A DNA stretch of 64,000 nucleotides from Escherichia coli. Lineage in GTDB: Bacteria > Pseudomonadota > Gammaproteobacteria > Enterobacterales > Enterobacteriaceae. Both the position numbers and the translations under genes were made by a program. A model generated the notes under the pieces. The model was not told where the DNA came from and ran no database searches. It saw only the letters and a list, made by a program, of their open reading frames with translations. The stretch lies in assembly GCF_013315695.1 (NCBI RefSeq), contig NZ_CP054353.1. One strand, written 5' to 3'. Below are positions 2,967 to 16,995 of the stretch, piece after piece; the first letter of the stretch is position 1, and each line of letters starts with the position of its first letter.

Positions 2967-3716
2967 ATGATTGAAATAGAATCACGCGAGCTGGCAGATA
3001 TTCCCGTTCTTCATGCTTATCCTGTCGGACAAAAAGATACCCCATTACCGTGCGTGATTTTTTATCACGGCTTTACTTCATCCAGTCTGGTGTATAGCTA
3101 TTTTGCCGTTGCGCTGGCGCAGGCTGGTTTGCGGGTGATCATGCCGGATGCGCCCGATCACGGTAGCCGTTTTAGTGGTGACGCAGCGCGGCGGTTAAAT
3201 CAATTCTGGCAAATCTTGCTACAAAGTATGCAGGAATTCACTACTTTACGTGCGGCAATAGCCGAAGAAAACTGGCTGCTTGATGACCGTCTGGCAGTCG
3301 GTGGCGCGTCGATGGGCGCGATGACGGCACTGGGAATTACCGCTCGCCACCCCACGGTGAAATGTACCGCCAGCATGATGGGATCGGGCTATTTTACATC
3401 GCTCGCCCGTTCACTGTTTCCACCGCTGATACCTGAAACGGCAGCACAGCAGAATGAATTCAATAACATTGTCGCGCCGCTGGCAGAGTGGGAAGCGACA
3501 AACCACCTGGAACAACTTGGGGACAGACCTCTACTGCTGTGGCATGGCCTCGACGATGACGTTGTGCCTGCCGATGAATCACTACGTTTGCAGCAGGCCT
3601 TAAGCGAGACGGGACGGGATAAACTGCTAACCTGTTCATGGCAGCCAGGCGTGCGTCACCGCATTACGCCTGAGGCGTTAGATGCTGCCGTGACATTTTT
3701 CCGCCAGCATCTTTAA
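2967..3716 (+). CDS. yjfP: YjfP esterase, alpha/beta hydrolase
   Basis: 249 aa; GGASMG nucleophile-elbow motif; position between bsmA and ulaR as in K-12. Confidence 0.85.
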
Positions 3717-4468: not shown

Positions 4469-4575
4469 GAGCTATTCCGATAAAATTTGATTTTTTTAGA
4501 TGATATTTGAAATAGCCAGGAAATACTACGCCGGATAGCGCGAACTTCTCCACGCTATCCGGTATAAACGATAGA

Positions 4576-13952: not shown

Positions 13953-14172
13953 TGTAATGTTACCTGTTTAATGTTTTTATAAATATCGCAGCTGATGTTC
14001 ACAGAAAAAGAATCGATATTAATAAAAATAAGTTTGTTTTCTGAAGTAGTGAAAATAGCGGATGGTGAAAGATATTAATATCAAAAATCGCTCATTATGG
14101 ATATAACGATGCCCCCGGGGAGAAAATGACTTCCACGCCTTCTACCATACATTCTTGTTGTGCGGTATGTAA

Positions 14173-14520
14173 TTATTCTACGCTGTTGGTATCGGTGCGT
14201 TTGTTAATCATCTGGTTAACCAGCCACAAAAAGCCATTGAGAAAGTTATTGATTCTACATGGAATTATTATATTTCTAATCCCTGGTTTTTAAAAGTTGT
14301 GCATAGTGAAAATCAAAGTAAAGGTGTGCATTATGCAAAATCACAGCGTCTCTTAGAAATTAACCATACGCACTTGCAGTTAATGGAATCCTTATTGGAT
14401 GAAGGGAAGAAACACAATATTTTTAAGCCAGATAGCGACCCATTGCAGGTGAATATTAATATTGCTGCGCTTGGGGGATATTATTTGATCAACCAGCATA
14501 CGCTTGGCCTGGTTTATCTG
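14173..14520 (+). pseudogene. ytfA: ytfA remnant: C-terminal fragment of a TetR-family regulator, no HTH domain, 3' end abutted by the IS
   Basis: Frame opens after TAA at 14170-14172 and reads ...[22 protein letters not shown]...[24 protein letters not shown] (ligand-domain-like), then runs into the IS left end. Track ORF 14299..14790 is a chimera of this frame and IS sequence. Confidence 0.5.
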
Positions 14521-14574
14521 GTGCGCCGTAAAACCCCGTCCTTCAGGGCGGGGATATACGGCGCGGTTTTCCAC

Positions 14575-15006
14575 CTAACCAGGTGTTTGCTGTTGTTCAA
14601 TGTATTGACGGATGGCGGATATTGGCGCACCTCCGCAGCTACTGGCAAAATAGCCAGGACTCCACAAAACGCCTTTGTAGTAATACCTGACTGCAATATC
14701 TGGTCGATCTCGTCGCAGTCACCTACCCGATACGCCTTTGAGGCTGTTTACCAGACTGGATATCGCCAGTTTGGGAGGATAGTTAATTAACAAATGGACG
14801 TGATCTGGTTCGCCATCCATTTCAACCAGTTCAGCTTCAAAATCAGCACATACATTTGAAAAGTAAGTGCGTAGTTTTTCTGTCGCGTCATAGTCAAAAA
14901 TCTGACGTCGGTATCTGGTGACAAAGACCAGGTGAACATGCATCAGGAAAACACAATGCCTTCCCCGTCGGATATCGGTTTCTTTATTCACAGACCAAAG
15001 TATCAT
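14575..15006 (-). pseudogene. tnpA: IS200-type TnpA (HUH/Y1 transposase) inactivated by an in-frame TGA
   Basis: ATG 15006: MILWSVNKETDIRRGRHCVFLMHVHLVFVTRYRRQ...[31 protein letters not shown](14719-14721)[50 protein letters not shown]. HxH motif is upstream of the stop; the conserved SPGYFA...GGAP C-terminus lies after it. Confidence 0.8.
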
Positions 15007-15013
15007 TTGGCCT

Positions 15014-16222
15014 GTGAAACGACTACAGGCATTTAAATTCCAGTTAAGACCCGGTGGTCAACAGGAGCGTGAAATGAGGCGCTTCGCAGGCGCATGCCGT
15101 TTCGTTTTCAATCGTGCTCTGGCGCTTCAGAATGAGAATCATGAGGCCGGTAATAAATACATCCCTTACGGGAAAATGGCTTCCTGGCTGGTTGAGTGGA
15201 AAAACGCCACTGAAATGCAATGGCTTAAAGATTCGCCCTCACAGCCATTGCAACAGTCACTGAAAGACCTTGAGCGGGCTTACAAAAACTTCTTCCAGAA
15301 GCGGGCTGCTTTTCCCCGATTCAAAAAGCGGGGACAGAATGATGCATTCCGCTACCCGCAGGGCGTTAAGCTCGATCAGGAAAACAGCCGTATTTTTCTG
15401 CCGAAACTTGGCTGGATGCGCTACCGGAACAGCCGTCAGGTCACGGGTGTTGTGAAAAATGTCACTGTCAGCCAGTCCTGCGGTAAGTGGTACATCAGTA
15501 TTCAGACAGAAAGTGAAGTATCCACTCCGGTTCACCCTTCAGCATCAATGGTCGGGCTGGATGCTGGCGTGGCTAAACTCGCCACGCTGTCAGATGGCAC
15601 AGTCTTTGAGCCTGTAAACAGTTTTCAGAAAAACCAGAAGACGCTGGCGAGACTTCAGCGACAGTTAAGCCGCAAGGTCGAATTCAGCAATAACTGGCAG
15701 AAGCAGAAACGCAAAATACAGCGACTGCATTCCCGTATCGCAAATATCCGCAGGGACTACCTTCACAAAGTCACAACGACCGTCAGCAAAAACCACGCAA
15801 TGATAGTCATTGAGGATTTGAAGGTCAGCAACATGTCAAAGTCAGCAGCGGGTACGGTCAGCCAGCCGGGGCGCAATGTCCGGGCAAAATCAGGTTTAAA
15901 CCGTTCGATACTGGATCAGGGCTGGTATGAAATGCGCCGCCAGCTTGAGTACAAGCAGCTCTGGCGTGGCGGTCAGGTGCTTGCTGTTCCGCCAGCGTAC
16001 ACAAGCCAGCGTTGCGCGTGCTGTGGTCATACAGCGAAAGAAAATCGCCTGTCACAAAGTAAATTCAGATGCCAGGCATGTGGATATACAGCGAACGCTG
16101 ATGTAAATGGCGCTCGTAACATTTTAGCGGCGGGGCACGCCGTTCTTGCCTGTGGAGAGATGGTGCAGTCAGGCCGCTCGTTGAAGCAGGAACCCACCGA
16201 AATGATTCAGGCGACAGCCTGA
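15014..16222 (+). CDS. tnpB: TnpB (IS605 OrfB family; RuvC-like RNA-guided nuclease family), apparently intact
   Basis: 402 aa from GTG 15014; N-terminal [12 protein letters not shown]...RFVFNRAL; RuvC-I GLDAGV, RuvC-II VIEDL, zinc finger CACCGH...CQACGY, Ruv[13 protein letters not shown]. Confidence 0.85.
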
Positions 16223-16290
16223 ACGAAGCAGGGATCCACGTCCTTCAGGGCGTGGAGGATGTCAACATATCAGTATGGTTTCCCCCCAGG
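16080..16290 (+). ncRNA. Candidate TnpB right-end guide RNA (omega/reRNA) spanning the tnpB 3' end and right-end hairpin
   Basis: Inferred from family architecture only; right-end hairpin at 16238-16257 is visible; no promoter or processing site identified. Confidence 0.3.
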
Positions 16291-16356
16291 CACTGGAAGC
16301 CAGACGTAAGGTCATCAAAGAGACGCTCCTTAGCTGGCTTTTGGTTGATCCTTCAT

Positions 16357-16995
16357 CTACCGCGCACGAATAAAACTGCCATCCGGCTGGCGGGTAAACA
16401 GGACCTGTTGATTATTCCCCGTATCAATGGTTAAGCCCGTCACCACGCCGCTGGCGTTCTGGCGGATTTTCACCATCTGCCCATTTTGCAAATTACTCAG
16501 CGGCTTACCCGCGCCTTCTACCTGCGCCATTGCATAGACATCGGTAGCGGGCAGTCCGTGGTCGCGGAACAGCTGCGCCATCGTTTTACCGGGTTCGACA
16601 CGGTAAGAGCGCCATTGATTATCAATTCCGCTATCTGGCTGGAATGGTTGCGTTTGGGTAGTTTGCGGCTGTTCTTCTGGCTGGCCTTCCTGTATAGGTT
16701 CTGGAGCGACCGGAGCCACCTGATCAGGATCATTTTGTGGTGTGACTAATTGCGCCCGCAGCTGTTCTTCTGTCGGCGGTTGTGATTGCGACTGAATATC
16801 TAACTGCGCTTCACGCGTCACCACCGGCGCGTTGGGCGTATCATCAGATGGAAGCAGAAATCCGACCACCAATACAATGGCGGCAATAATGATCCCCCGA
16901 CGATGCATCGGCGGCAGCGGGTCCATGAAGCGAAAATTGTCCGGCGCGTGCCAGACTTTCTCCAGGGTTGGTTTTAGTTCAAAGCGCCCGGGCAT
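16357..16995 (-). CDS. ytfB: YtfB, OapA/LysM-domain cell-division protein
   Basis: 212 aa from internal Met ([46 protein letters not shown]...), single TM, Pro/Gln-rich linker. Confidence 0.85.

Follow-up and report, generated by a model that had tools for sequence, protein, structure and literature searches.

What remains of an insertion sequence when its transposase gene is interrupted by a stop codon and its nuclease gene is not? The question is raised by a locus in the 64,000-nucleotide stretch of Escherichia coli DNA analysed here (the window), where an initial annotation had described an IS200/IS605-family element, with a full-length tnpB and a tnpA broken by TGA, inserted in a remnant of ytfA. 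We consider it highly probable that this is a copy of IS609 carrying a common allele with TGA at tnpA codon 96 (TGA96), likely acquired through gene conversion, and that its tnpA is dead while its tnpB is intact, with donor-joint targeting as the predicted activity. Public E. coli genomes, the K-12 reference among them, already carry annotations of the element, its position and this specific stop.

Identity, ends and insertion site of the element

The reference for identity was the curated feature ‘insertion sequence:IS609’ of E. coli K-12 MG1655, and an element was called IS609 if it was at least 95% identical to this feature at the DNA level, full length, and bounded by the same ends. The window element is 97.6% identical to the reference, colinear over 1748/1748 bp and identical at both ends. 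It reads as an ordinary IS609 copy; IS609 belongs to the IS200/IS605 family and is a single-strand transposon of the ‘peel-and-paste’ type. The copy occupies 14518..16265 (plus strand; 1748 bp, without target duplication). The hallmarks of the family are present: similar subterminal imperfect hairpins at both ends without terminal inverted repeats, insertion 3′ of a fixed tetranucleotide without target-site duplication, and a Y1 HUH transposase gene, here in the form of a pseudogene. The family assignment made initially is therefore supported by the NF033573 profile, the hairpins, the TTAT target and the IS609 match.

Alignment to genomes with an empty ytfA site, proposed in the initial annotation as a check, fixed both the ends and the target. 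Empty ytfA sites in K-12 and ATCC 25922 read GGTTTAT directly followed by CACATCAG, and yajI in K-12 offers a second empty site, from which it can be seen that the first base of the element is the C after TTAT. Junctions at the empty sites of ytfA (K-12, ATCC 25922) and yajI (K-12) are scarless, with no duplication. Because that C is the first base of the IS, the element runs to the limits given above and not from 14520 to 16290; the earlier suggestion that the hairpins mark the boundaries holds, but the limits attached to it do not. The target motif TTAT lies at 14514..14517 (plus strand), 5′ of the left end, and 7/7 independent insertion sites end in TTAT before C. We infer that TTAT is the transposon-adjacent motif (TAM) for both TnpA and TnpB. 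The exact delimitation of IS609 and its TTAT target from empty sites is a by-product of this analysis.

The left-end subterminal imperfect hairpin is an inverted repeat at 14523..14564 (plus strand) with the core CCCCGTCC-TTCA-GGGCGGGG at 14534-14553, and the right-end hairpin at 16236..16255 (plus strand) reads CCACGTCC-TTCA-GGGCGTGG, with the element closing at ...GATGTCAA (16265). The two belong to a 21-nt direct repeat (14534-14554 and 16236-16256) that is 90% identical between copies, each copy forming a hairpin with a TTCA loop, and folding as single-stranded DNA gave z = -3.9 on the left and z = -2.35 on the right. Matching imperfect hairpins had been noted at both ends, and this description stands.

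The insertion point lies 3′ of TTAT within an N-terminally truncated TetR-family gene, ytfA. The intact gene (ATCC 25922) is a 648-nt TetR/AcrR gene, of which the N-terminal 245 nt are absent in the window, as in K-12. What is left comprises a 5′ fragment at 14223..14517 (plus strand; nt 246-540 of the intact gene, from blastn against ATCC 25922 and the PGAP annotation of close relatives) and a 3′ fragment at 16266..16373 (plus strand; nt 541-648, from blastn against ATCC 25922), the end of which overlaps the 3′ end of ytfB (16357-16995, minus strand). These matches bear out the placement of the insertion in a ytfA remnant. An identical IS609-ytfA junction is found in 1744/5426 complete E. coli genomes; the insertion is old and vertically inherited in about a third of E. 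coli. The element-free ytfA junction, or donor joint, is TTAT followed by CATATCAG, or, with a longer left flank, GGTTTAT followed by CATATCAGTATGG.

K-12 indeed has no IS between ytfA and ytfB, as the initial annotation stated, yet its ydcL-ydcO interval contains this element, TGA included. This MG1655 copy (1503161-1504908; the yncK/insP pseudogene plus insQ) shares with the window element its 1748 bp, ends and TTAT target, a divergent tnpA/tnpB pair with 7 nt between start codons, the TGA at tnpA codon 96, and an intact 402-aa TnpB. It differs in its locus and by 42 bases. As read from the K-12-like genome PG20180172, the K-12 copy has also lost the terminal stop of tnpA, and its TnpB differs from that of the window at 12 residues, none of them catalytic or a zinc ligand. 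The IS609 copies at ytfA in other E. coli (O157:H7, CFSAN051542, EcPF7) have the same insertion point and flanks and are 98-99.4% identical to the window element. Most of those examined have TTA and an intact tnpA (WP_000604959.1, WP_000604943.1), whereas the window has TGA, and the window also differs from them in a central segment of tnpB. A more distant comparison is with IS608 of Helicobacter pylori, which likewise has an HUH/Y1 TnpA (the homolog in the window matches 2A6M with E = 1e-18) and subterminal hairpins. IS608 inserts 3′ of TTAC, where the window element has TTAT, and its right end closes in TCAA, as in the window. Unlike the window element, IS608 has co-directional tnpA and tnpB, and the sequences are only distantly related.

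The tnpA pseudogene and the spread of its stop codon

The tnpA pseudogene (HUH/Y1 transposase) lies at 14575..15006 on the minus strand, as established by translation, alignment to solved IS200/IS605 TnpA structures and NCBIfam NF033573. Read on the minus strand from 15006 to 14575, its 143 codons are interrupted once in frame, by TGA at codon 96 (14719..14721, minus strand); the nearest relatives have TTA (Leu) here, and plus-strand position 14720 is C instead of A. The window TnpA aligns with solved TnpAs with E = 1e-17 to 3e-20. Its HUH motif (H69-V70-H71) is kept upstream of the stop, and its catalytic Tyr119, which aligns with the catalytic-Tyr motif of the solved proteins, falls downstream. 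Against NF033573 (transpos_IS200; cutoff 55 bits) the truncated TnpA scores 101 bits and the repaired TnpA 144.5 bits, the truncated form spanning only profile positions 2-84 of 126. A 143-codon gene deprived of its C-terminal part is what the initial annotation had described, and the part removed can now be said to include Tyr119.

Because TGA at codon 96 removes Tyr119, autonomous transposition of this IS609 would have been lost. The 95-residue product would contain the HUH motif but lack the helix with the catalytic Tyr, and should be capable of neither self excision nor insertion, in line with the earlier proposal that the element cannot mobilise itself. Judged from its sequence, the window IS609 is a non-autonomous member of its family unless TnpA is supplied in trans; the TnpA of another IS609 copy in the same genome could mobilise it. 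The 64-kb window itself contains no second IS609 or tnpA copy that could act as a conversion donor or as a source of TnpA in trans.

Where the initial annotation needs revision is in its implication that the stop is a private nonsense event. The TGA allele was counted at 3368 places across 2726 genomes and the intact TTA allele at 4481, so that ~43% of IS609 copies have TGA; they occupy no fewer than five distinct loci. The MG1655 pseudogene yncK bears the identical TGA, which is also present in yedK, yajI, ydcO and yfeD copies and in two other ytfA copies. Alleles at the ytfA site were read directly in eight copies only, of which three (the window included) have TGA and five TTA; strains WP4-W18-ESBL-09 and MSB1_6C have a window-like TGA at ytfA. 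On these comparisons the supposed nonsense mutation is a widespread IS609 allele, not one confined to this copy, and is very unlikely to be an artefact of sequencing. Past codon 96, one private amino-acid change apiece is present in three TGA copies (V106F; P117A, which adjoins the catalytic Tyr; and Y135S), and no private synonymous change was seen among the TGA copies examined, a pattern expected for a pseudogene. TGA-bearing copies other than those at yajI show no further disruption.

Origin and possible function of the stop

Of the 16-18 differences that separate the window from its two closest genomes over 16 kb, 12 are within the IS (binomial P about 3e-9 to 3e-8). Such clustering makes gene conversion among IS609 copies the likely origin of the stop. 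Eleven of the 12 in-element differences fall in a mosaic segment of tnpB at 15430..15905 (plus strand), probably an inter-copy gene-conversion tract. In comparison with CFSAN051542, the window has the allele of the yajI-site copies at 8/11 of these positions, and the other three are private to CFSAN051542. The stop is the only tnpA difference from the nearest relatives. As those relatives have TTA and the adjacent tnpB shows a conversion tract, the TGA of the window copy was most likely donated, through gene conversion, by a further IS609 elsewhere in this genome.

A fresh T-to-G nonsense mutation, private to this lineage and not imported from another IS609 copy, would produce the same codon, and we regard it as unlikely while granting it some weight. 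The change is of a single base with no linked marker, and ytfA-lineage alleles persist at the variable sites on either side, 14615 and 14892, as an independent mutation would predict; such a mutation would, however, have had to reproduce the common allele exactly, in codon, base and substitution alike, in a copy where gene conversion is demonstrably active. A possible donor of a tract of ≤288 bp is L010, a yfeD-type copy that shows no difference from the window over 14604-14891. That the TGA is an error of sequencing or assembly, in a strain whose tnpA is really intact with TTA, is very unlikely because the identical base sits in thousands of other copies: the wrong base would have to recreate exactly the allele of those 3368 places, which K-12 and two other ytfA-site copies share. 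Such an error had been named in the initial annotation as a finding that would overturn its reading of tnpA, and the suspicion is fed by the A at 14720 in the two closest genomes, the sole tnpA difference from them, and by the lack of a perfect match to 14380-14760 in any complete genome. Against it, the adjacent tnpB has 11 more real-looking differences, eight of which match alleles of other IS609 copies in the CFSAN051542 comparison.

A further reading, to which we give a slim chance, is that TGA96 has a regulatory role and is more than a pseudogene allele, with readthrough at UGA-C giving a trickle of full-length TnpA, or with the 95-residue HUH-only fragment inhibiting TnpA dimers. The active sites of TnpA are assembled in trans within the dimer. 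Among stop contexts in E. coli, UGA-C is the most prone to readthrough, and a little full-length TnpA(L96W) could conceivably be made. C does come directly after the stop, and a 9-bp hairpin has the stop at its base; the G makes this hairpin more stable (-12.2 against -7.4 kcal/mol). The spread of TGA copies over at least five loci, undisrupted save at yajI, would also fit. If true, regulation would explain why one allele is so common at these loci, and a trans-dominant HUH-only fragment would stabilise all IS609 copies in the cell. Most TGA places, however, are accounted for by the ydcO copy being passed on vertically, and by trans-mobilisation or gene conversion, and the V106F, P117A and Y135S changes past the stop come with no private synonymous change. 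In addition, tnpA overall looks neutral (14 nonsynonymous vs 4 synonymous variable codons among 14-15 non-independent IS609 copies), and the hairpin at the stop is not significant (z = -1.69) and does not look like a SECIS element. We also considered and rejected a selenocysteine reading of the TGA: this same local hairpin has no SECIS-like apical loop, and the codon is Leu in TTA copies and aligns with Leu in two solved TnpA homologs. We favour import of the common allele by gene conversion, and a second by-product of the work is the recognition of the stop as a shared IS609 allele that probably moves between copies in this way.

The tnpB nuclease and its predicted guide

The tnpB gene (15014..16222, plus strand) is an uninterrupted 402-codon ORF for an insQ-type RNA-guided endonuclease. 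Aligned to the ISDra2 TnpB structures 8EXA/8H1J (E = 6e-54, residues 3-376), the RuvC residues D183, E267 and D363 correspond to D191, E278 and D361 of ISDra2, and the zinc finger C334/C337/C353/C356 (CxxC...CxxC) to C331/C334/C351/C354. Pfam matches are OrfB_IS605, Cas12f1-like TNB (PF07282, E = 2.7e-24) and HTH_OrfB_IS605, and NCBIfam NF040570 (guided_TnpB) scores 391.8 bits against a cutoff of 100. The protein has the catalytic triad D-E-D and the target-nucleic-acid-binding-domain zinc finger by which a TnpB endonuclease is recognised. The full-length gene with RuvC motifs and zinc finger described initially is confirmed, and the substituted catalytic residue that would have spoken against it does not occur in the ISDra2 alignment. 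An exact-sequence look-up returned no record of the window's TnpB, and its mosaic tnpB is unique. Among the copies examined, 13/15 have the full 1209-nt ORF, the exceptions being L014, which ends 4 codons short, and L015, from which 11 bp are deleted. The pooled pN/pS for tnpB is 0.32 across 14-15 non-independent copies, a small comparative signal which suggests that the intact gene evolves under purifying selection while tnpA drifts.

A putative ωRNA scaffold, made up of the tnpB 3′ end and the right end of the element, is placed at 16095..16265 (plus strand), with an uncertain 5′ limit. An Rfam scan (E up to 1) gave no family at gathering score, and only three sub-threshold matches at 16095-16278: sot0042 (17.4 bits), HgcC (24.7 bits) and RAGATH-18 (29.5 bits), all of which are families tied to tnpB 3′ ends in the literature. 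The putative ωRNA fold (z = -1.64) is not significantly more stable than shuffled sequences. The element does contain a UUCA-loop hairpin like that described for sotRNAs, and a sense overlapping transcript of tnpB has been reported for E. coli K-12. A scan for promoters and terminators gave counts equal to the shuffled expectation, with no usable promoter for tnpA, tnpB or the ωRNA. Under the ISDra2/ISGst model, the 16-nt guide would be the flanking ytfA sequence CATATCAGTATGGTTT (16266..16281, plus strand), which occurs once only in the window.

If the IS609 protein behaves like its ISDra2 and ISGst counterparts, it would associate with an ωRNA produced from the 3′ end of tnpB together with the right end, the flanking ytfA sequence serving as guide. 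Following the donor-joint targeting model of Meers et al., the complex would then cut the TTAT-flanked empty site and so force recombinational restoration of the element. As tnpA is dead, this activity would be of consequence in two situations only: excision in trans by the TnpA of a different IS609 copy, or arrival of an empty allele in the cell. The nuclease activity, the limits of the ωRNA and the role of TTAT as the TnpB TAM are predictions drawn from the ISDra2 and ISGst TnpBs, RNA-guided nucleases that retain their transposon; the window element shares their D/E/D residues and zinc finger, and an ωRNA would be expected from its tnpB 3′ end plus right end. The TAM of ISDra2 is TTGAT, against the predicted TTAT, and activity of the window TnpB is predicted by analogy. 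In the portions of the literature available to us, the activity of IS609/insQ TnpB appears in survey mentions and in one study that purified IS609 TnpB, where no result is reported.

It might be asked whether the TnpB at ytfA no longer serves the transposon and instead works for the host, for instance after domestication into a TldR-like RNA-guided repressor. An old insertion common to 1744 genomes, with tnpB under purifying selection while tnpA decays, is compatible with this, but we find it scarcely credible. TldR proteins have lost the RuvC catalytic residues and the zinc finger, and here all three residues and the finger are intact, as are both transposon ends. The predicted guide is the element's own flank, with no other match in the window, and some ytfA copies have lost tnpB (the 11-bp deletion of L015).

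Retention of a nuclease that serves its transposon is the reading we prefer. The conservation of tnpB while tnpA drifts fits the published view of TnpB persisting in non-autonomous IS200/IS605 elements, and a predicted TAM and guide are now given for a native E. coli TnpB at ytfA.

IS609 at the ytfA remnant

The insertion in the ytfA remnant corresponds to the curated MG1655 feature 'insertion sequence:IS609' (1503161-1504908, 1748 bp), with which it is colinear (97.6%) and shares identical terminal sequences. The empty ytfA site of K-12 MG1655 and ATCC 25922 reads GGTTTATCACATCAG and the filled site reads GGTTTAT-C(T)GGTG...GATGTCAA-CATATCAG, a comparison that by itself leaves the left/right limit ambiguous by one base. 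The ambiguity was settled with six more insertion loci (yedK, yajI, ydcO, yeaQ, yfeD and yidH), both ends being read in five. TTAT followed by C was found at the left flank in all five, the base after ...GTCAA was variable, and the empty yajI site of K-12 shows that the C is the element's own base. The element therefore spans 14518-16265 (1748 bp), lying 3′ of TTAT with no duplication. Hairpins were seen near both ends, in agreement with the initial annotation: two 21-nt repeats that are 90% identical (14534-14554 and 16236-16256) each form a hairpin by themselves, with TTCA loops and single-stranded DNA fold z-scores of −3.9 and −2.35, respectively.

When 14400-16400 was compared by megablast with 5426 complete E. 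coli genomes, IS609-type elements proved near-ubiquitous, the matched genomes being annotated with an IS200/IS605 or IS609 tnpA adjoining an 'RNA-guided endonuclease InsQ/TnpB'. The left junction (14380-14760) was covered to at least 80% in 1744 of the 5426, and thus the ytfA insertion is common and vertically inherited; IS609 at ytfA is already annotated in hundreds of genomes.

Only nt 246-648 of ytfA are present in the window (the first 245 nt are missing; 14117-14223), compared to the intact 648-nt TetR gene of ATCC 25922, and IS609 splits this remnant after nt 540. The same N-terminal truncation is found in K-12 without the IS, and the loss is an older deletion or replacement, independent of the IS. 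Upstream of ytfA, ATCC 25922 carries genes for a 3-ketoacyl-ACP reductase, a sugar phosphate isomerase and an enoyl-CoA hydratase, in place of which the window has yjfZ.

Coding capacity of tnpA and tnpB

Translation bears out the earlier description of tnpA (15006..14575, minus strand) as a 143-codon HUH transposase gene interrupted once in frame, by a TGA at codon 96 (plus-strand 14719-14721). The repaired TnpA matches NF033573 transpos_IS200 across the entire profile (144.5 bits), whereas the actual 95-residue product reaches only position 84 of the 126 in the profile. In alignment with solved TnpAs, the HUH motif is H69-V70-H71 and the catalytic tyrosine motif LW..SYF is W115-Y119, beyond the stop; the truncated TnpA therefore lacks its nucleophile, and so this IS609 copy is non-autonomous. 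All IS200/IS605-family features testable here were found, save autonomy. An RNA hairpin of 9 bp (14685-14721, minus strand) has the TGA in its 5′ arm, where the G of the stop makes a G-C pair missing in the TTA (Leu) allele (−12.2 vs −7.4 kcal/mol); the hairpin was not significant against shuffled sequences (z = −1.69).

As the initial annotation also held, tnpB (15014-16222, plus strand) is full length, an uninterrupted ORF of 402 codons, and its catalytic site and zinc finger are preserved. The product scores 391.8 bits on guided_TnpB (cutoff 100), has the Pfam domains HTH_OrfB_IS605, OrfB_IS605 and Cas12f1-like TNB, and aligns over residues 3-376 with ISDra2 TnpB (8EXA/8H1J; E = 6e-54). D183, E267 and D363 fall opposite ISDra2 D191, E278 and D361, and C334/C337/C353/C356 opposite the four zinc ligands; a substituted catalytic residue was looked for in this alignment and none was found. 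The tnpA ATG (15006, minus) and tnpB GTG (15014) are divergent with merely 7 nt between them, so each promoter must lie within the other gene. Both start codons are covered by a 13-nt palindrome, TTCACAGACCAAA / TTTGGCCTGTGAA (14987-15018), which could block either start site in RNA; the non-ytfA copies have a mismatch in it at 15010.

The tnpB ORF keeps its full 1209 nt in 13 of 15 copies read, the exceptions being those of M7424 (stop at codon 399, 4 codons early) and 22AR0434 (11-bp deletion, frameshift). Among 14-15 related copies, a sample that makes selection figures indicative only, tnpB gave a pooled pN/pS of 0.32, tnpA was disrupted three times independently (by TGA96 and two frameshifts), and its variable codons upstream of codon 96 comprised 14 nonsynonymous vs 4 synonymous. 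Three TGA copies each carry one private amino-acid change past the stop (V106F, P117A and Y135S). The terminal tnpA stop is gone in several copies (TAG to CAG at 14577; loci L007, L010, L016 and L017).

Origin of the codon 96 stop

The same TGA occurs in IS609 copies at yedK, yajI, ydcO and yfeD, in two other ytfA-site copies (WP4-W18-ESBL-09 and MSB1_6C), and in MG1655, where tnpA is the pseudogene yncK. Using 41-nt queries, each able to seed on one allele only, the TGA allele was located 3368 times, in 2726 genomes, and the TTA allele 4481 times, in 2532 genomes. Judged by these sequence comparisons, the stop is a shared IS609 allele and not a private accident. Its recurrence at thousands of places makes a sequencing error, the caveat attached to the initial reading, very unlikely. 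The one novel reading left is a regulatory role for this very common allele, with either leaky readthrough of UGA-C or trans dominance of the HUH-only fragment as the mechanism; we consider it highly improbable.

The nearest genomes, CFSAN051542 and EcPF7, have TTA at codon 96, their sole tnpA difference from the window. The TGA may be an independent mutation in this copy, but import by gene conversion, as in the tnpB segment described next, is most likely. A yfeD-type copy matches the window exactly across 14604-14891; no donor IS609 copy is present in the 64-kb window. Across 16 kb there are 16 differences between the window and EcPF7 and 18 between the window and CFSAN051542, with 12 of those differences inside the 1.75-kb IS (binomial P = 3e-9 and 3e-8, respectively) and 11 of them in tnpB 15430-15905. 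In that segment these otherwise near-identical genomes have three different versions; compared to CFSAN051542, the window carries the yajI-type allele at 8/11 positions, the other 3 being private to CFSAN051542. On sequence evidence this mosaic is the mark of gene conversion between copies of IS609, and the segment looks like a hot spot for it.

Putative guide RNA and relation to known elements

The anatomy of IS609 is like that of IS608/ISDra2-type elements. TnpA of this family binds the subterminal hairpins on one strand and, after cutting, carries the element as a circle of single-stranded DNA. The predicted IS609 TnpA cleavage sites lie 3′ of TTAT (left end) and 3′ of TCAA (right end). The ends of this copy are intact, and a TTA copy at another genomic site could work on them. 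For TnpB, the predicted partner is an ωRNA beginning within the 3′ portion of tnpB and extending across the right end into flanking sequence. At 16095-16278 there are below-threshold hits to three Rfam families: sot0042, the sense overlapping transcript of IS1341-type tnpB; HgcC, which has the UUCA-loop motif as well; and RAGATH-18, shown to be a guide for IS607 TnpBs. A sense overlapping transcript of this kind has been reported for E. coli K-12. That TnpB is an active nuclease, where the ωRNA begins and ends, and that TTAT serves as the TnpB TAM are inferences. A stretch within tnpA (14686-14701) is 88% complementary over 16 nt to 16158-16173 in the putative ωRNA region; the RNAs as transcribed would be similar and not complementary, and the match is probably due to chance.

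The predicted guide, CATATCAGTATGGTTT, corresponds to 16266-16281. Its target would be TTAT plus this sequence, as found at the donor joint or in an empty allele, with no other occurrence in the window. At the third guide base (16268) the window and its closest relatives have T, against C in K-12, ATCC 25922 and O157:H7; pairing of the guide with an empty allele of the K-12 type would thus include a mismatch in the TAM-proximal seed. In the model of Meers et al., donor-joint cleavage forces restoration of the element by recombination. With a dead tnpA, such cutting would be relevant only after trans-excision or on meeting an empty allele.

Overall, the initial reading is supported and the case is an ordinary, already known one. 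The closest known system is the same element, the K-12 IS609, which shares the tnpA stop and has insQ intact; the stop, the element and the ytfA position are all known already from public E. coli genomes.
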